From Scyliorhinus canicula (lineage: Eukaryota), in the NCBI RefSeq assembly GCF_902713615.1, contig NC_052175.1, positions 9,837,271-9,901,270 on the forward strand: DNA of 64,000 bases, given 5' to 3'. The notes beneath the pieces were generated by a model. It did not search any database. It saw nothing but the letters and a program-made list of their open reading frames with translations, and was not told where the DNA came from. Shown here piece after piece: positions 6,302 through 41,994 of the stretch (its first letter is position 1; the number at the start of each line of letters is the position of its first letter). The translations under genes were made by a program, and so were the position numbers.

Positions 6302-7203
6302 TCAGTTGTATTTATTGATTAGCTTCCTAATTGATGTAACCGGATATGTCACCGCGATCTTGACCTGCTCCCTGAACTTGGACTGAGTTATCACATAAAT
6401 AATTGTATTTGTGCAGCAATTTAAATCTAGCAGCATATATCCAACTACCTGTAAATTATATTGAGATTCAGTGAGGTCAATTACTCCCCTCAAATCAAAA
6501 TAGATCACGTTAAATTCAAACACTGTCCAGAGGGCAATGAACGTTCCGGAGAGGCTGAAGAGTAAAATTATTGACTTCCTTCTGCTCTCCATCTCTGGAT
6601 CTCTGCGTTTGTCTCCCTGACTCTGAGCCTTCAGTGTCTTCCGGACACGACTGGTGATTATAATGTGTCTGACTGTCAGAGCGTTGATCAACAGGATTAT
6701 GCCGAATGGGATCAATGGGCTTGTAATCTGAGCAAACAAGATAAATGAGACCCACATGGGGTCAGTGAAAAAGCTCATCTTTCTCTGACAGCCCCACTGG
6801 ACATTGTCGATTGTCTGCATAGGTTCATATAAAAAGTACCAGGGGATGTTTCTGACACAGACCACGATGCAGGTTATTGACAGAACCACAGCCACAGTTC
6901 TCTCTGTGCAATATTTAGTTTTCAGTTTCGGGCAGCAAATGGTCACAAATCGGTCAAAGGAGAAAGTGACGGTGAACCAGACAGAACAGTGCGCGGCTGA
7001 AGAAATCAGGACGTCTGAAAGGCTACACAGTGTGGTGAGGTTCAGAAAATTCCAGTGGAAATGATAAAGATTCATCTTGTTCAGTACGGGGCAAGTGATA
7101 ATAAACACCAGATCCGCCACCGCCATGGCTATCATGTAGCGCGTGGTGCAGGTAGAGAGGCCACACTTTCCCCGACACAGAATCACAATTCCCAATAAAT
7201 CAA
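6302..7203 (-). CDS. GPCR gene A exon 2: class A GPCR, GPR139/GPR142-like family (322 aa when spliced)
   Basis: Intact ORF with AVADL (D2.50), C3.25, FDRF, ECL2 Cys and NTIIY. Acceptor ctctctgatag|TTGAT at 7204/7203 is phase 1 and joins exon 1 as ...GVP-V-DLLGIVIL. Confidence 0.92.
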
Positions 7204-7246
7204 CTATCAGAGAGAAGAGAGAACAGTCTGGAAATTATTATTTATT

Positions 7247-18858: not shown

Positions 18859-20121
18859 GTAAGTGACTATCACCTGTCATGTTGTGTAAATCTGTGTGAG
18901 CGGCTCTTTGATTTTAAACTGTGACTGAAATTGTTTAATGCTGATCTCGTGCTCACTGTTATACAGACACCTAATCAACAACGTCATTCAGATATGTCCA
19001 CTGTCTTTAAACATGTCTATGGCTTGAATCCCTTTAACAACTGACAATAAACCTCTGTTTCGAAATCACGGGATCTCCGATTAATGAAGTTATTATGTTT
19101 AGTGGAATCGCGTATAATGTTGGCTTGCAGCTTAGTGAAGGCAATTTCTCAAAGGACGTTTTGTGGGAGAAGAAAGAAATCACACCGAGTGTGGATTTCC
19201 ATCCAGAGTGGAATATCTGACAGCGGTGAACAAGTATTCTTCAAAGTATCTGTCAGAGTAGAATGTGAGTCTCTCACCAGAGTGGAATATCTGATCCAAT
19301 GACCATCTATTACTGGGACTATCTTTCCGAGTAGAGTTGTATTATATGTGGGACAGGAACTGGACTGAAATAAGTTGTTCTATTTTGAAATTATCTGTTT
19401 TATCGGCGAGTAGTTGCTCCATCCTATGGATATCTCTCTCCCTCTCTACCTCTTCTTCTCTTGCTCGATCTCTATCTCTCATACCTATATATCTATCTCT
19501 CTGTATCTCGCTGTATTCTGTCTTTGGAATAGATTGAAAACAGGAACAGTTTGCCTGTGTTGTGAAGGTGTTTGATATTTATTGTGTGAAGTGAAGTGTC
19601 TTGGCATCTCAGTTTTATATTGAGCGGCTCCAACAGAAACAGATATCACCTACACTCTGACATTTAAATCTCAACACAGTGCAGTATTTTAAATGGTTAT
19701 GTGATCTGTTTCTTATGTCTGTTAACACTGAAATGAAGTCCAATGTTTGTTCATTGTCTGAGGGAGTTTTGGAGGAGTGATGACAATATCTGGTACGTTT
19801 GTGTCTGGTTTGGGAAACCTGGCCAATCTGCGGTAATCCTCTAAATTAGACTAAATGAGAAATGTAACCTCTTCCAAATGTACTTCAATTATGAACATCT
19901 TTTCTATCACTGCCATCAAACAACTAGGTCTGAAATTCCTGCTTTTGCCTTCCCAATACTTAAACACGGGTACATTTGCGGTGTTAAACTCTGTGTCCAC
20001 CCTTCCAATACTGGACCCAACACACTGCCCATTTTATTGATGCTGAAATCTAATCTTGCACCATGCCCTCGAGAATATTTATTCAGTAATTTACAAACTC
20101 TTCTCCCTTTCTCTCTGACAG

Positions 20122-21023
20122 TCAATATACTGGGAATTGTGATTCTGTGTCGCGGAAAGTGTGGCCTCTCTACCTGCACCACTCGGTACCTGGTGGCAAT
20201 GGCGGTGGCGGATCTGCTTTATATTGTCATTCACCCTATACTGACCAAGATCAATTATTATTATTTCCCCCGGAATTTCCTGGAGATCACCCCTGTATGT
20301 AGTGTTCAAGAAGTGCTGATGTCTGCAGCCATGGACTGTTCTGTCTGGTTCACTGTAATGTTCTCCTTTGATAGATTTGTGGCCATTCGCTGCCAGAAAC
20401 TGAAAACTAAATATTGCACCGGGAAAACTGCATCTGCTGTTCTGTCAACGGTCGGTCTCCTACTCTGTGTAAAAAATATCCCCAGGTACTTTCCATATGA
20501 ACCGATAGAGATAATCAACAATGTCCAGTGGGATTGTCAGCCAAAGAGCAGCTTTTTCACTGATCCCATGTGGGATTTAATTATCTTGTTTGATCAGATA
20601 TTAACCCCATTGATCCCATTCGGTTTAATCCTTCTGATCAACGCTCTGACAGTCAGACACATTTTACTCACCAGTCGAATCCGGAAGGCACTGAGGGCTC
20701 AGAGTCAGGGAGACAATCGGAGAGACCCCGTGGTCGAGAACAGAAGGAAGTCAATGATTTTACTCTTCAGCATCTCCGGAACTTTCATTCTCCTGTGGAC
20801 TGTGTTTCTTATTAAAGTTTTCTACATTGATTTCGGAGGTTTGATTGACCTCACTGATCCTCAATATAATTTGCAGGAAGTCGGATATATACTGCTGGAT
20901 TTAAATTGCTGTGCAAACACATTTATTTATGTGGTGACTCAGTCCCGGTTTCGGGAGCAGATCAAGGTCGCGGTGACATATCCGGTTACATCAATTATTG
21001 AATTAGTCAATTTTAAAAAATGA
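20122..21023 (+). CDS. GPCR gene B exon 2: class A GPCR, GPR139/GPR142-like family (322 aa when spliced)
   Basis: Acceptor ctctctgacag|TCAAT gives GVP-V-NILGIVIL. Intact 7TM motifs: AVADL, PVCS, FDRF, WDCQ, NTFIY. Confidence 0.95.
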
Positions 21024-30575: not shown

Positions 30576-31329
30576 GTGATCGATGGGGTGAAGAGCAAGA
30601 GAGAGAAGTCAGAGATGGGATATTGTAAGAAGAAAAGAAAGGGGGAAAGAACAAAAGAGTGCTGCTTGATTGTGAATATTGAAGTATAAACAGAACCATT
30701 CCTGGAATGAGCAGGAGAGTGGGCAGAGGTTCATTATTGTCTTCTTCCTTTATTTCCAGTGTGGCAGTAAAACAGACGGCGATAGCGATTGAACACAAGA
30801 CGGAGAGACACAAGCTCTGGGAATGGTACTCCAGGATTCCGTCGCTGGCCACCCTTTGGGGACATCTCAGTCTGTCGATTTACATTTAATTTAAAATAAA
30901 AGTCTTGCTTGAAATCTGTTCCCATTGTAGGGCCGTGTTTATAACATGCGTTCTACGAATAAGAGGAGAGAGAAGTATTAGGATCTTGCTAGGATCTATT
31001 CTAGTTCCATAATATTTTGATTTGTTGTAATATATTTCCATCTGTCTCTATTTTGAAGATTGGAAGATGCAAAGAGATTTCTTTCGCAGCGAGGAAATCT
31101 CAGCAAAGAACAATCACCGGAGCGAAATAGTGTCATAAATGTCTCCGAGACATTTTTATTCATCATCTCACACACAAAATAGATTTGTGGTGTTTCAACT
31201 CAAAGTATTTTGGTCTGTTTATGGGTCTGAATGAGTTCTCAGTCTCTCCAGAAATGGAAATTTAGGGAGAGAGTGGGAATGAGTCAACAGGTGATTGACG
31301 GTGCCAAGGCAGATGAGAAGAGATTAAGG

Positions 31330-34300
31330 GGGAAGGGGCAGTCAGCAGGAGTTTGAGGTGGAATGGGTAAAGTCAGCTAGGCATTGAGTGGGAGAAGGAC
31401 AGAGTCAGTAGGGCATAGAGGGAGGAGGAGGCAGAATCAGCTGCTCATTGAGGGAGGGGACAGGCAGCAGGGGATTGAGGCGTTGGGGGCAGTCAGCAGA
31501 GGATTGGGGGCAATAGGCTGATTCAGCTGGGAAATGAGGGTGAGGGGACAGAGGCAGCAGGGGATTGAGGAGGAGGAGGCAGAGTCAGCAGTGGAGTGAG
31601 GGGGAGGAGGCAGTCAGCAGGGAATTGAGGGGGAGGGTCAGAGTCAGCAGGGGATTGAGAGGGAGGGGGCAGAGTCAGCAGAGGATTGAGGGAGATGGGT
31701 CAGTGTCAGCAGGGCATTGAAGGGGAGGGGCAGAGCGAGGATGGAGAATCAGCGTGCGGGTTCAGAGTCAGCAGGAATTTGAGGGGAGGGGCGGTCAGCA
31801 TGGGATTGAGGGTGAGGGGTCAGAGCGAGCAGGTGTTTGAGGGCGAGGGGGCAGAGTCAGCAGGACATTGGGAGGGAGAGGGCAGTCACCGGGGGATTGT
31901 GGGGGAGGGGACATAGTCAGCAGGCAATTGAGGGGGAGCGGCAGTCAGCGTGAGATTGAGGGGATTGGCAGAGTCAGCTGTGGATTGAGGGGGAGGGGGC
32001 AGAGTCTGCAGGGGATTGTCAGAGTCAGTAGGGTTTTTAGGGGGAGGGGCAGAGTCAGCAGGGCATTGAGGGGGCAAGGATAGTCAGCGGGGGATTGTGG
32101 GTGAGGGGGCAGAGTCAGCAGGGGTTTGAGGGGAGTGGCCAGTGAGCAGGGGATTGAGGGGGCAGAGTCAACAGGGGATTGAGGGTGAGGGGGCAGGGTC
32201 AGCAGGGGATAGAGGGTGAGGGGGCATTTAGCAGGGGATTAAAGTACACGAAGCAGAGTCAGCAGTGGATTGAGAGTGTTGGGCAGTCAGCAGGGGACTG
32301 AGAGGGATGGGGCAGTCTGGGCAAGGGATTGTTGGGACAGACTCAGTCGGGTATTGCGGAGGAGCAGTCACAGTGATCAAGTGATTGAGGGTTAGGAGGC
32401 CGAGTCAGCAGGGAATTGAGGGGATTGTCAGAGTAAGGAGGGTTTTCAGGGGGAGGGGGCTGTCAGCAGGCTATTGAGAGGATTGGCAGTGTCAGGAGGC
32501 GATTGAGGGGGAAGGCAGAGTCAGCAGTGTATTGTGGGCGTGGAACAGAGACAGCAGGGGAATAAGGGTGAGGGGTCAGAGTCAGAAGGGGTTTGACGGG
32601 GATGTGTCAGAGTCAGAAGGGCATAGAGGGGGAGCGAGCGGAGGCAGCAGGGGATTGAGGGGAGAGGGCAGACTCAGGAGGGGAATGAGGCGGTGGGGGC
32701 AGTCAGCAGAGCATTGATTGGGCGGGGCAGAGACAGCAGGGGATTGATGGGAAGTGGGCTGGTTCAGCATGGGACTGAGGGGCGGGGGAAGTCAGCAGTG
32801 GATTGAGGGGGAATGTGCAGTCAGTAGGGAATTGAGGGGGCTGGGTTAGTGTCAGCAGGGGATAGAAGGGGAGGAGACAGAGCGAGGAGGAGAATGAGCG
32901 TGCGGGTTCAGATTTAGCAGGGGTTACAGGGAAGAGGCAGAGACAGCGGCGGAGGTGTCAGAATGAGCAGGGGATTGAGGGTGAGGGGGCTGAGTCAGTA
33001 GGGGATTGAGTATATGTGTCAGTATCATCAGGGAATTGAATGGGAGGGGAAGAGCGAAGAGGAGAATGAGCGTGCGTGTACCGAGTCAGCAGGGATTTCA
33101 GGGGAGGGGCAGAATCAGCAGGGGATTGTGGGCGAGGGGACAGAAACAGCAAGGGATTGAGGGTGAGGGTCAGCATCGGCAGGGGTTTCGGGGGATGTGT
33201 CAGAGTCTGAAGGGTATTGAGGGGGAGCGAGCAGAGAGAGCAAGGGATTGAGGGGAGAGGGAAGACTCAGGAGGGGAATGAGGCGGAGGCGGCAGTCAGC
33301 AGAGTATTGAAGTGGTGGGGGCGGAGACAGCAAAGGATTGAGGGGGGGAAGGGCGGATTCAGCATGGGAGTGCAGACTCAGGAGGGGAATGAGGCGTAGT
33401 GGGGGCGGAGACAGCAAGAGATTGAGGGGGGGAGGGCGGAGACAGCATGGGAGTGAGGGGAGGGGGCTGAGTCAGCAGTGGATTGAGCAGGAGGGTGCAC
33501 AGTCAGCGGGAATTGAAGGGGATGGGTGACATCAGGGGATTGAAGGGGAGGGGGTAGAGCGAGGAGGAGAATGCGCGAGCGGGTCCAGAGCCAACAGGGC
33601 ACTGTGGGGGGACGTTGCAGAGTCAGCAGGGCATTGAAGGGGAGAGGGCAGTCACCGGGGGATTGATGGGGGGGGGTGGGGGACAGAGTTAGCGGGGCAT
33701 TGATGCTGAGGGGGCTGTCAGCCGGGGATTGAGGGGGTAGTGCCAGCAGGGGATTGAGTGGGAGGGAGCGGAGGTAGCAGGGAATTGAAGTGGAGGGAGC
33801 AGAGTCAGCAGTTACTTTAGGGCAGTGGGCCCAGCAGGGGTTGAGGGGGATGGGGCACACTGAGCAGGGGTATTGAGGGGAAGTCAGTAGGGGATTGAGC
33901 GGGAGAAGGCAGAGTCGCAGTGGATTGAGGGGGAGAGGGCAGAGTCAGCCATAGGATTGTGAATTGGCAGATCCAGTCGGAGATTGAGTGGGAGTGGGTT
34001 CAGTCGGCAGGGGATTGAGGAGGAGGGGGTTGTCAACAGGGATTGAGGGGATTGGCAGGTTCAGTAGGGCATTGGGGGAGGGCAGAGTCAGCAGGGGATT
34101 GAGGGCGAGTGGGCAGACACAGATGGCGAATTAAGGGTGGACAGGGTCCGTCTGCAGGGGTTTGAGGGTATGTGTCAAATTCAGAAGGGTATTGAAGGGG
34201 AGCGAGCAGAGAAACAGGGCATTGTGAGGAGAGGGCAGGCTCAGGTGGGAATGAGGGACGGAGGGGGCTGTCAGAAGAGCATTGAGGGGGTGGGGGTGGA

Positions 34301-34810
34301 GACAGCAGGAGCTTGAGGTAGAGGGGGCGGAGTCTGTAGGGGGAATGAGAGAGGGTACAGCGTCAGCAGTGTATTGAGGGGGAAATTACGGAGTCAGCAG
34401 GAGATTGAGGCGGCTAGGGTCAGAGTCAGCAGGGGATTGCGGGGGGGGGGTTGCAGAGACAGCATGGTATTGAAGGGATTGGTCAGTGTCAGCAGGGGAT
34501 TGAAGGGGCGGGGGCAGAGCGAGGGAGGAGAATGAGCGTGCGGTTCCGAGTCAGCAGGGATTTGAGGGGAGGGGCAGGACTGAGCAGAGGATTGATGGGT
34601 CAGAGTCAGTAGCGGATTGCGGGGAGGAGGCAGAGTCAGCAGGGGATTGGGTGGGAGTGAAGACGTCAGCAGGGGTGGGGGAAAGAAGCCAGAATCATCA
34701 GGGGATTGAGATGGAAGGGGTCAGTGAGCAGGGGATTGAGGGCAGTGCATTTTCAGCAGGGAATTGAGGGGGTACGGGCAGAGTCAGCAGTGGATTGAGG
34801 GGGATGCGAC
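31330..34810. repeat. G-rich minisatellite, unit about 30 bp (GAGGGGGAGGGGGCAGAGTCAGCAGGGGATT-like)
   Basis: Continuous degenerate tandem array of about 3.5 kb with extreme G/C strand skew. Confidence 0.95.
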
Positions 34811-34824
34811 AAAGTATATCCAAG

Positions 34825-35160
34825 AATCATAGAATCATAACATTTACAGTGAAGGAGTCAAGTCGGCCGATCGTCTCTGCACCGATCCTTGGAAAGGGCA
34901 TCCCATTGATGCCCCACACGTTCAACCTATCCCCGTAACCCAGTAACCCCATCTAACCTTTTTGGACACTAAGGATAATGTGTCATCACCAATCCACCTA
35001 ACCTGCACATCTTTGGACCGTGGGAGGAAACCGGAGCACCCGGAGGCAACCCACGCAGATACAAGGAGAACGTAAAGATTCCAGGACAGACAGTGACCAA
35101 AGCCGCGAAACAAAGCTGAGATCCTGGAGCTGTGACGCAACTGTGCTACCACTGTACTGC
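34825..35160 (-). mobile_element. HE1-like SINE
   Basis: Head, body and (catagaat)n tail. Confidence 0.85.
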
Positions 35161-35164
35161 CTAC

Positions 35165-37401
35165 CTATCAGCCCTTGGGAATGCATGTTCAGGGGCATCC
35201 TTCAGTTTAAACTAACACACTATTCCCATAGTGTCCCAAGTGTTCACCTGAAAAAGTTCATGAGTCTTGTTCTCCCCTGCCCTTGGAAGATGCAGCATCA
35301 TTCCCACTAGAAAGGTATGGATATAATTGACTGGGTAATGTCAACCCTAAGGAGGTGTTTTTGCAGCCTGGTGGGCCATATTTACCCGAGTCTTCAATTA
35401 ATCATTGCTCACACAATTAGGTATTCGGTATGCATCCAGGTGGAGTAGGTTGGTCTGGAGGCTTTGTGATAAGCGTGTTGCACATATATTACATGTCTTC
35501 ACGGGGCACGCTTCCTTCGGGATAGCACTCTGTCTCTCAAATAATTAATTCATTGTGGTCTGATATGGTTGCAACTGTTTGTGTTCTTTCCACACAAGGT
35601 AATGGACTTGGTGGCTAAGAGTGTAGGCATTTAGGTATATGTCCCTAACTGCAGCTCTAATTTGCCCTTTCATAACCTCAATCTCTTCACGTATCTCTGC
35701 TCTGCCAAGAACATTGACAGTTGAAACTCATATCCTCCAGCCTCCAGTTCCACTCTGTCTCTCTGTTGTCTCTTTTGTGTTGTCAATTCACTCCCGTCCA
35801 CAATACCCCTCTTTAAGGCGACAAAAACCCTTGCCCATACAAATAGGCTGATACGTGTAGGCTGGCGAGATTAATCATAATTTTCACATGGAGTCTGCAC
35901 CGGCTCTTGGACCCAGTAACCCCACCCAACACTAAGGGCAATTTTGGACACTAAGGGCAATTTTTCATTGGCCTATCCACCTAACCTGCACATCTTTGGA
36001 CTGTGGGAGGAAACCGGAGCACCCACACACACACGGGAGGATGTGCAGACTCCGCACAAACAGTGACCCAAGCCGGAATCGAACCTGGGACCCTGAGCTG
36101 TGAAGCGATGTGCTATTACAATGCTACCGTGCTGTCCTGGTACGGTCGTCACTGATTCATCAGTGAAGGTCAGAACTAAGCCGTTTCCCAGAGTGTGGCG
36201 AGTGATATGTTAATCACATTCGGGCTTGGGGTTGGCCTTGGACTTGTGGTTGGAACCGATCCGGAGCTCGCCGGTGCCACAGTGGTGGTGATAGGCTTCT
36301 ACCACCTCCACAGTTATCCCGTGGGGTTCTTGCTTCCTACAATATCCCACCCGATTCTCGGGCGCCAGAGCTGACTGGTTGCCGATCTCACTTCTCTCCG
36401 AAACGAATTGTCAATCTATCACCGACTCACTCATGATTTTCAGTACGGCTTTGGTGCCTGCTTAGGGATCTATTTACAGAATTTCAGAAGCTTTACATTC
36501 ACAATCGGGGGATTTGGTCAATCGAAGGCAATTATACGTTCCTGATCGGCCATTTTTAAAAACATGTCATTTTGCCTGGGGTAAAAGTTTGCTGCGTTCC
36601 AGCTTTCCGTATCAGCTGTAATCCCTTGATCCTTGGTTCCCAATGATATAGGGCCTGGATACTTAGCAAGTGCAAGTAATTCGTATAAGATGCCCCGAGG
36701 GACGTATCAAGTCCCGTTTGTGCAGACATCCCGAGTCCCAACATAATAAAACCTATACAAATCCTCCCATTTGAATTTCACATAGCATTTACAACAACCC
36801 TCCGCTCCGGCATGACATTAATATACATGCGATCATCGTTTTTTCTTTCAGCAATGCCGGCTCCTTCATGTCAATGGCGATGAGGTCGATGTTGATGGCT
36901 GCAGCCAAGAGATGAAATGGGGCCCTAAAGTGCGCGAGCAATAGAATGCTGTGGTATATATATATATATTCCGGCACTAAATTAGTATTATATCATTTGC
37001 ATCTACTCCAATCCTTCCTCGAATATCATCTCCGTGACTTCGTACCAATAGCCTGTGTCACTCTGGTGGCCCATGACAAATGCAGATAATTTCTTTTACA
37101 AGTGCTAGCAGTTGCCAATGCCGGAGGGATCTCTCAATCTTGTGACTGTGGCACTACTTATGAGGGTACGGTTTCAACTGTATCCAATGTTGCCACCGCG
37201 GACTAGGTTTCTCGTCGATTAAGGCAAATGTTTGTCCAGCAATGATTACTGCAGAGGGTGCCTCCCATCAAACCCCTGTGCCGTTTTATCTGTCATGAGT
37301 TTGACCATGACCCTTCCCTGCTGTCGGAGTTTTGGGGTATCCTTTCCAGTCAGTTTGGTCCAATTTTTATGCTGTTGCTGTGCCTGACCTTCACGACATG
37401 C
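35165..37401 (-). mobile_element. Decayed endogenous retrovirus remnant: integrase C-terminal domain followed by env (SU and TM)
   Basis: 37166-37267 reads WEAPSAVIIAGQTFALIDEKPSPRWQHWIQLKPY, preceded by GRVMVK (retroviral IN-CTD pattern). Downstream are a Pro/Thr-rich linker (36200-36298), KRQQR/D (35757-35774) and a heptad-like segment VSTVNVLGRAEIREEIEVMKGQIRAAV. Multiple stops and frameshifts; no LTR seen. Confidence 0.65.
35890..36138 (-). mobile_element. HE1-like SINE inserted into the ERV env
   Basis: A and B boxes and body; the env reading frame resumes on both sides. Confidence 0.88.
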
Positions 37402-37501
37402 NNNNNNNNNNNNNNNNNNNNNNNNNNNNNNNNNNNNNNNNNNNNNNNNNNNNNNNNNNNNNNNNNNNNNNNNNNNNNNNNNNNNNNNNNNNNNNNNNNN
37501 N
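37402..37501. other. Assembly gap (100 N)
   Basis: Run of N. Confidence 1.
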
Positions 37502-40639: not shown

Positions 40640-40960
40640 TCATTGAATCATATCATCTCTACTGTGCAGAAGGAGGCCATTCGGTCCATTGATGCTGCAA
40701 CGATCCTTGGAAAGAGCACCCTAACTACGCCCATGGCCTGACTTTGCACCCGTAACCCGGAATCCCCAGTTGTCCTTTTGAACACGAAGGGGCCGCTTTG
40801 GATGGCCAATCGACCTAACTGTGGGAAGAAGGCGAAGCATCGGGAGGAAACCCACGCACACCCGGGGAGAATGGACACTCCACAGACAGACACCCGAGGC
40901 CGGAATTGAACTTGGGTCTCTGAAGCTGTGAGGAAGCAGTGCTAACCACTGTGGCACGGT
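40640..40960 (-). mobile_element. HE1-like SINE in the gene C intron
   Basis: Head gtgccacagtggttagc, B box agttcaattcc, tail. Confidence 0.85.
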
Positions 40961-41053
40961 TCCGCCATGGAGGACTCCAGACGTTAAACTTGTCTGTAGT
41001 TACTTCTCAGTGGCTTATTTTTTTCATTTTAGTGTCTGTCTTTCTTTTTGCAG

Positions 41054-41994
41054 TTAACTTGACTGCGATTGTGACACTGAGTCGGAAAAAGTGTGGTCTC
41101 TCGAAATGTATCACTGGTTCCATGCTTGGAATGGTGGTGACGGATTTCCTGGTCATTATCAATGAGGTCCTATTATTTCGGATAGGTTATCAATTTTTCC
41201 CTGAAACTTTCTTCTCCATTACCCCTGTGTGCAGTATCATTACTGTTCTGACTCGGGACTCCAGAGACATCTCAGTTTGGTTAACTGTTGGTTTCTCATT
41301 TGATCGCTTCATCGGTATTTGTTGCCCAAAGCAGAGAACAAAATATTGCACAAAGACAACAGCGTCGGCTATTATATCATCAACATTAATTCTGCTGAGC
41401 TTTAAAAGAGCTGTTTGGTATTTTATATATCAACCTTTGGAAATAATCGGCAATGTCCCCTGGTATTGTGATATAAAGGTTAGCTATTTTACTGACTCTG
41501 GGTGGGTGGCCTTTGACAGGTTTGATACACTGTTAACACAATGTCTCCCGTGTGTCTTAATGTTACTGGTTAATACTCTGACAGTCAGACACATCTTAGT
41601 GACAAGTCGAGTCCGTCGCGGATTGGGGGGTCAGGGTAAAGGAGAGAAAAAGGCTGATCCTGAAATGGAGAACAGAAGAAAGTCCGTTGTTTTATCTTTG
41701 CAATTTCTGGCAACAAAACTCTTGTGGTTGCCGTATATTACAAGTTTCTTGTATTACATATTTGCACAAACAAGTCCCCTGGATTACAGCGAATCTTTAC
41801 ATGCGCTTCATCTTTGTGGTTATATGTTGCAGAATTTAAGTTCCTGTGCAAATACCTTCATTTATGGAGTAACTCAAAGCAACTTCAGACAGCAGTTCAA
41901 GATCGTGTTGAAATATCCGATTGTTACGTTTGTTAAATTGTTTTACAAAAAAATGTTAGATAACAACACTGTGTATTGTCTGGGGAAGTATTGA
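41054..41994 (+). CDS. GPCR gene C exon 2: class A GPCR, GPR139/GPR142-like family (336 aa when spliced; may be decaying)
   Basis: Acceptor tttttgcag|TTAAC gives GIP-V-NLTAIV. Motifs VVTDF, PVCS, FDRF, WYCD, LWLP, NTFIY. Open frame, but with a compensated frameshift in TM6. Confidence 0.85.

Follow-up and report, generated by a model that had tools for sequence, protein, structure and literature searches.

Background

The envelope glycoproteins (Env) of retroviruses represent different classes of fusion proteins, those of orthoretroviruses belonging to class Ia and those of foamy viruses to class Ib (Fernandez et al. 2024, PMC11468914). Lokiretroviruses are described to combine an Env resembling paramyxovirus F with a retroviral gag-pol containing tether and RNase H (Wang and Han 2021, PMC7947760). 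From cartilaginous fish, snakehead-like and "spuma" endogenous retroviruses (ERVs) were reported in chimaera and catshark, the Env class not being given in the available parts of these reports (PMC4422223, PMC10699275); the snakehead retrovirus clade is known as clade Huo (Xu et al. 2018) and CmiERV lineage I (Han 2015). Env swapping was reported by Chen et al. (10.1101/2021.11.23.469661). Captured env genes include syncytins, percomORF and shark candidates, the latter from a screen described as requiring an immunosuppressive domain (ISD) and CX6-7C (Proudley et al. 2026, 10.64898/2026.05.06.723177).

The window analysed here is a stretch of 64,000 nucleotides from Scyliorhinus canicula (NC_052175.1, positions 9,837,271 to 9,901,270), in which an earlier note had proposed a decayed ERV. 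The locus is best understood as a piece of integrase and env, interrupted by a SINE, from a shark ERV family with dispersed copies; this family is likely located on the snakehead side of class III and has a predicted class Ib Env (probability roughly 0.8). Family membership, gene order, long terminal repeats (LTRs), 5-bp target duplications, a tRNA-Ser primer site and the loss of coding capacity were directly observed. The fragment as such is a common kind of defunct ERV remnant, from a lineage whose outlines had been described; the newer result is an intact homologue outside of the window, on contig C14.

Results and discussion

Anatomy of the window fragment

All 19 peptide motifs searched for (those of the earlier note and a few added here) were located in the proposed order on the minus strand between window positions 35164 and 37401, where they are spread across three frames (Table 1). 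They belong to a dead integrase tail and the 5' two-thirds of env, which is split by one SINE and truncated by another. No open reading frame (ORF) is visible, in agreement with the previously noted empty ORF track, since the longest stop-free stretch comprises only 88 codons. The integrase region carries one frameshift near 37268 and reaches into the assembly gap, while env stops at 35164, upstream of the membrane anchor, and the copy has no 3' LTR. The SINE within env is present almost as first delimited (35890-36138); it is common to three closely similar copies on this contig (hereafter near copies) and absent in dispersed copies. As to the question raised earlier, whether pol continues past the assembly gap, comparison with family copies revealed no ERV sequence beyond the gap in the window. 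The segment at the start of env is likely to have encoded a signal peptide. The basic site formerly described as furin-type exists, but represents only a minimal R-X-X-R motif at which cleavage may have occurred. HVKIMINL aligns with EIVPVVFNL of an intact homologue, which forms a strand in the model of that homologue. Today, the window copy is a non-coding remnant, likely without activity. All three nearby ORFs tested (window 6302-7234, 19845-21023 and 40924-41994) encode single-exon 7TM receptors (PF00001).

Table 1 Features of the ERV fragment (window positions) and of the intact homologue on contig C14
Feature	Position	Strand	Remarks
Assembly gap	37402..37501		
Decayed pol 3' end, integrase C-terminal region	37160..37401	minus	tblastn to sibling ORF and Pol P0061
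KLRQQ..QGF motif	37270-37332	minus	
WEAPS..LKPY motif	37166-37267	minus	
Decayed env start	37059..37138	minus	matches hydrophobic segment after integrase stop in L023, L042 and L046
Decayed env surface subunit	36135..37058	minus	77% DNA identity to siblings; tblastn
Pro/Thr linker in surface subunit	36215-36298	minus	
tRNA-type SINE inside env	35891..36134	minus	sibling-alignment break at 35890/36135; many SINE matches
Surface-subunit end	35760..35890	minus	predicted core strand HVKIMINL and basic site KRQQR
HVKIMINLASL motif	35858-35890	minus	
KRQQR motif	35760-35774	minus	
Decayed TM first half	35164..35759	minus	fusion peptide, heptad repeat, helical core, strand GMMLHLP
VSTVNV..RAAV motif	35647-35727	minus	
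CPVKTCNIC motif	35482-35508	minus	
GMMLHLP motif	35284-35304	minus	
LGHYGNS motif	35219-35239	minus	
Second SINE at truncation point	34836..35163	minus	
31-bp satellite after truncated env	31322..34804	no strand	present in near copies too
Intact 754-aa env-like gene	G000:C14:36601690-36603950 (L077:3690-5951)	minus	upstream exon from L078:1807 onward

Searches for retroviral integrase and Env, proposed earlier as a check, were negative for the window by itself, none of its six frames matching any retroviral family in Pfam, but positive via its relatives (sibling ORFs, Pol P0061 and the Env profile A5). The similarity exceeds chance because such relatives match: the integrase tail shares 68–69 % identity with sibling ORF L042:40-648 (tblastn, E 9e-23) and 47 % with residues 1108-1143 of the intact Pol P0061 of a sister family (E 1e-5); the surface-subunit part matches sibling ORFs with tblastn E values of 9e-18 and 8e-15; and the TM part is 51 % identical to a sibling ORF (E 3e-61). 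The fragment is also 52 % identical to protein P0032 of Scyliorhinus torazame (E 5e-62), and profile A5 matches at 35164-35748 (iE 9e-42).

A dispersed family of proviruses

The siblings with LTRs and reverse transcriptase (RT) for which a search had been recommended do exist and form a dispersed family. The integrase-surface-subunit part is matched 50 times in the genome and the TM part 44 times (40 candidates scored each); most of these copies are 71–79 % identical to the window fragment, and three located on its own contig reach 92–96 %. Sibling copies display gag (CCHC), protease, RT, tether, RNase H, integrase and env between LTRs, which bears out the proposed succession of integrase C-terminus and env within a full gag-pro-pol-env order. 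Copy L023 has zf-CCHC (E 8e-6), RVP (E 2e-4) and RVT_1 (E 2e-22) domains with the RT motif YVDD, other copies have tether (E 6e-8), RNase H (E 2e-7) and rve (E 7e-16), and RT and family Env co-occur within a single 10-kb locus in L145 and L148. Of 15 copy pairs inspected, eight yielded an LTR pair; seven of these have K2P distances of 0.05–0.12, and the eighth has a distance of 0.03 over 110 bases. These values translate into ages of about 11–27 My at a mammalian rate or 115–270 My at a tenfold lower shark rate, taken from PMC4422223. The LTRs end in TG...CA, a purine run precedes the 3' LTR, and 5-bp target duplications were recognized by eye in six pairs (three exact, three with one difference or extra base). 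The primer site is complementary to host tRNA-Ser(UGA), this tRNA being encoded at three places (ARAGORN-confirmed). A genome query with the LTR yielded 1645 first-look candidates, 40 of which were scored. The siblings thus possess the gene order, primer site, polypurine tract and target duplication expected of a Retroviridae ERV; the window holds only the integrase tail and env. A non-retroviral origin is ruled out by the anatomy of the sibling copies.

Contig C30 carries four copies in all, the one in the window included, and the near copies are likely segmental duplicates, since both the SINE and the satellite are common to them. At the position of the gap, they hold ~390 further bases of integrase followed by a LINE piece and the leader, with a 5' LTR after the leader in L038; the short integrase, LINE piece and leader indicate that the ancestor likely lacked most of gag-pol. 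The four C30 copies likely go back to a provirus, by then already broken, that was duplicated segmentally within a cluster of 7TM-receptor genes.

Two neighbouring family copies on C4 (L024:5341-8387, L039:7209-8360) contain a long tandem array of a 36-base unit from the integrase region, with stop-free frames of up to 931 codons. Another ERV with gamma-type env (L031:1-1918) and a class I gag-pol ERV (L058:2900-8000) are nested in family copies, and two long ORFs (390 and 222 aa) resembling HEAT-repeat host sequence adjoin a further copy (L030:5120-6958).

Placement of the reverse transcriptase

Alignment of the family RT against viral contigs yielded three relatives among 68 candidates: snakehead retrovirus (L061) with 39 % identity and two foamy records with 29 %. 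The RT tree (LG+G4) comprised 25 rows after removal of 21 of 46 as redundant or short and was built without lokiretrovirus, ERV-L/S, walleye and beta/lenti RT. Gamma and epsilon labels were assigned in the present analysis, the epsilon-like references being two viral records and one shark ERV, with no walleye virus. The family (100/100) groups with sister shark ERVs and a minnow (cyprinid) ERV (99/98), then with snakehead retrovirus and two other shark families (84/90), and this side together with foamy viruses is separated from the gamma and epsilon-like rows (99/98). Grouping with the epsilon-like rows was rejected (AU p=0.0003). When rooted with gypsy, a quick tree placed the family within retroviruses, together with foamy viruses and snakehead retrovirus (SH-aLRT 98), its root being unreliable because class I came out paraphyletic. 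Among PDB sequences, MLV-type RTs matched best (5e-35), ahead of foamy (6e-24) and Ty3 (4e-16). The family thus likely sits on the snakehead-retrovirus side of class III. Further features shared with this clade are a CCHC Gag, a long Env without CX6CC or ISD and, in hhalign though not in hmmsearch (see below), an alignable TM core. Differences are the long RT branch of the family and its Env of ~840 aa with a short tail, as compared to 1042 aa with a long tail in snakehead retrovirus; moreover, several sister RT families of the catshark genome bear gamma-type Env. The notion of a deep, poorly described lineage is tenable only in part, as such ERVs had already been reported, according to PMC4422223 and PMC10699275.

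These sister RT families (L140, L141, L143 and L149) show that Env class varies within one RT clade, which agrees with the Env swapping described by Chen et al.

Sequence and predicted fold of the family Env

Sibling Env proteins consist of a signal-like segment, a surface subunit of ~370 aa, a basic site and a TM subunit totalling ~460 aa, in which a Gly-rich fusion peptide and heptads precede a beta region with Cys residues; a second heptad comes next, and an anchor ends the series. The earlier judgement that env is not gamma-type is upheld: CX6CC and ISD are missing from all four family Env ORFs inspected and both present in the gamma control L031. The family profile retrieved 25 proteins among 1.84 billion; all 12 of those with names looked up are from sharks (five species). 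Searches with the family Env ORF and profiles against PDB sequences and Pfam fusion families, a word-indexed protein search for longer Env relatives and single-protein searches of virus sequences gave no match. With hhalign, the probability for snakehead retrovirus Env rose with alignment depth from 1.6 % via 22 % to 70 % (E 4e-5 over 126 columns at the deepest); shallow alignments had yielded 1.6 % for snakehead retrovirus, 0.2 % for foamy and 0.1 % for gamma Env. Profile A4 (hmmsearch) scored snakehead and foamy Env no better than shuffled sequences. In the ESM Atlas, the family ORF retrieved haemagglutinin, Fusion_gly and Baculo_F clusters at 0.90–0.91 with low recognition, a lead only, and P0050 matched a single chordate cluster without a name (0.82). 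The catshark genome also contains several other decayed F-like env families (L065-L075, L086-L095), which are 22–46 % identical to the intact C14 gene, L094 being the closest.

Modelling was done with two intact homologues, P0050 and L077 residues 195-689, which are 17–24 % identical to the family Env, rather than with the family Env itself. The PDB rows listed by Foldseek comprise only paramyxo/pneumovirus F, foamy Env (8rm0/8rm1) and one coronavirus spike row (best E 4.5e-4 and 5.5e-6 for the two models, TM-scores at most 0.28). VIA compared 48,161 chains, and the first 11 ranks were taken by foamy Env and ten F chains (Z 8.2–6.0); the best row, foamy Env (Z 8.2, rmsd 11.9, 217 aligned), has a Z near the tool's background for unmatched models and is closely followed by NDV F (Z 7.9). 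In BFVD, Env of walleye dermal sarcoma virus ranks first (8e-5), which hints that Env of walleye epsilonviruses may also belong to class Ib; glycoproteins of a fish filovirus and a myriapod virus, the F proteins of baculovirus and metapneumovirus, and Env of feline foamy virus are among the other best rows. Taken together, the models suggest that the family Env is likely a class Ib (paramyxovirus-F/foamy-like) fusion protein, the assignment being no stronger because the homologue models are of low confidence and homology had to be transferred (E 9e-11; E 3e-9). Entry of the ancestral virus would accordingly have relied on a furin-cleaved Env trimer whose long TM subunit would fold together with the end of the surface subunit; an N-terminal fusion peptide would be released before the heptads refold in the manner of F proteins.

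Alternative explanations

The class Ib prediction could be mistaken if the fold matches merely reflected long helices in weak models, which have mean pLDDT values of 51 and 54, half of their residues below 50 and low TM-scores. Since the same protein family was ranked first with two models, two programs and two libraries, generic coiled coils ranked lower (Z 5.2 and below), HIV gp41 reached Z 4.7 with its helix only, and the TM length and missing CX6CC/ISD fit class Ib, this is considered improbable. A foamy-like Env, as the earlier note had suspected from the TM part, would be explained directly if the family were a cartilaginous-fish member of the spuma clade. The top VIA row is indeed foamy Env, tied with NDV F, a weak Spuma_A9PTase match was obtained for the family sequence (E 0.01), and a foamy-sister RT topology is not rejected by the AU test (p 0.17), against 84/90 support for the snakehead grouping. 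Proteases of Spumaretrovirinae are of the A9 type, and foamy viruses are not known to have a CCHC motif in Gag. The family differs in both respects, L023 having a CCHC knuckle and an RVP-type protease, its RT is closer to snakehead retrovirus than to the foamy records, and its Env has an N-terminal signal peptide instead of the long foamy leader and no Pfam Foamy_virus_ENV match. The relation to spuma Env thus stands for the predicted fold of the homologues, including the long TM subunit, but not for the sequence, as the deeper hhalign comparison with foamy Env (2.6 %) is not significant. A catshark ERV was classed as spuma, according to PMC10699275, and most foamy viruses are stated to use a Lys rather than a Ser primer site (PMC5512871). 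On the whole, spuma-clade membership is unlikely, though a shade less so than a misjudged fold.

Much the least probable is a lokiretrovirus in shark. The Env layout described for that lineage is the same (signal peptide, basic site, fusion peptide, coiled coil, anchor, F similarity), as is a dual RNase H (PMC7947760). Against this, the family RT is nested with foamy and snakehead retroviruses under the gypsy outgroup instead of being basal, in a tree that had no loki reference, and is nearer to MLV-type than to foamy or Ty3 RTs; in addition, PF00523 is not matched, and cartilaginous hosts are absent from the list in PMC7947760. The snakehead-side family with a predicted class Ib Env hence remains the preferred reading.

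An intact homologue on contig C14

Starting from P0050 (Chiloscyllium), the homologues P0064 (S. torazame) and P0065 (Heterodontus) were identified. The catshark genome holds one match at 98 % without stop, the next best being broken and 46 % identical (stricter first look). The C14 protein is 97.7 % identical to that of S. torazame, and identities between shark orders are 85–88 % (three orders). Among four species, three of which were found because intact, at least 178 changes have accumulated with 0 stops, where 11 would be expected, and 0 internal gaps, where the indel rate of the LTR pairs predicts about 20. All 19 cysteines are invariant in the four species, as is 87 % of the TM ectodomain. 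In these species, given the same mode of discovery for three, the open frame appears to have been kept under constraint. Within 48 kb around the gene (C14:36580000-36627999), 15 queries detected no gag/pol relics (E up to 0.05), and no convincing flanking LTR pair was found; three same-orientation repeats of 250–330 bp are present, at least two of them SINE-like.

A 4782-base contig of run X1 (presumed RNA) covers the C14 ORF and joins it to a unique upstream exon. The junction sequences (AG/GTAAGG and CCCAG/GT) define a GT-AG intron of ~5.85 kb that ends two bases before the ATG and could be a relic of the proviral env splice. In runs X2 and X3, intron and exon are covered alike, and the one raw RNA run inspected, X22, contained no reads on the C14 ORF. 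The C14 gene is likely a domesticated non-gamma envelope, a candidate viral gene kept by sharks. It resembles captured env genes such as syncytins, percomORF and the shark candidates in being intact, conserved, apparently spliced and devoid of gag/pol. From the candidates as described by Proudley et al., it differs by the lack of ISD and CX6-7C and by being conserved in three orders and not just in one genus; it was missed by screens of this kind because they demand both motifs. A literature search retrieved no report of an F-like snakehead/walleye Env or a domesticated non-gamma shark env; both may still have been described earlier.

Conclusions

A class Ib Env on a snakehead-side Pol is of interest in view of the division into classes Ia and Ib put forward in PMC11468914; next to sisters with gamma-type Env, it points to Env swapping between fold classes in early retroviruses. 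It appears somewhat more probable than the opposite that class Ib Env is typical of the snakehead clade (perhaps also of walleye epsilonviruses) and that galeomorph sharks domesticated one before the lineages of catsharks, bamboo sharks and horn sharks diverged. If so, the C14 gene would be a very old captured env of a fold class overlooked by syncytin-based screens, and it offers a testable candidate for a host fusogen or restriction factor in sharks.
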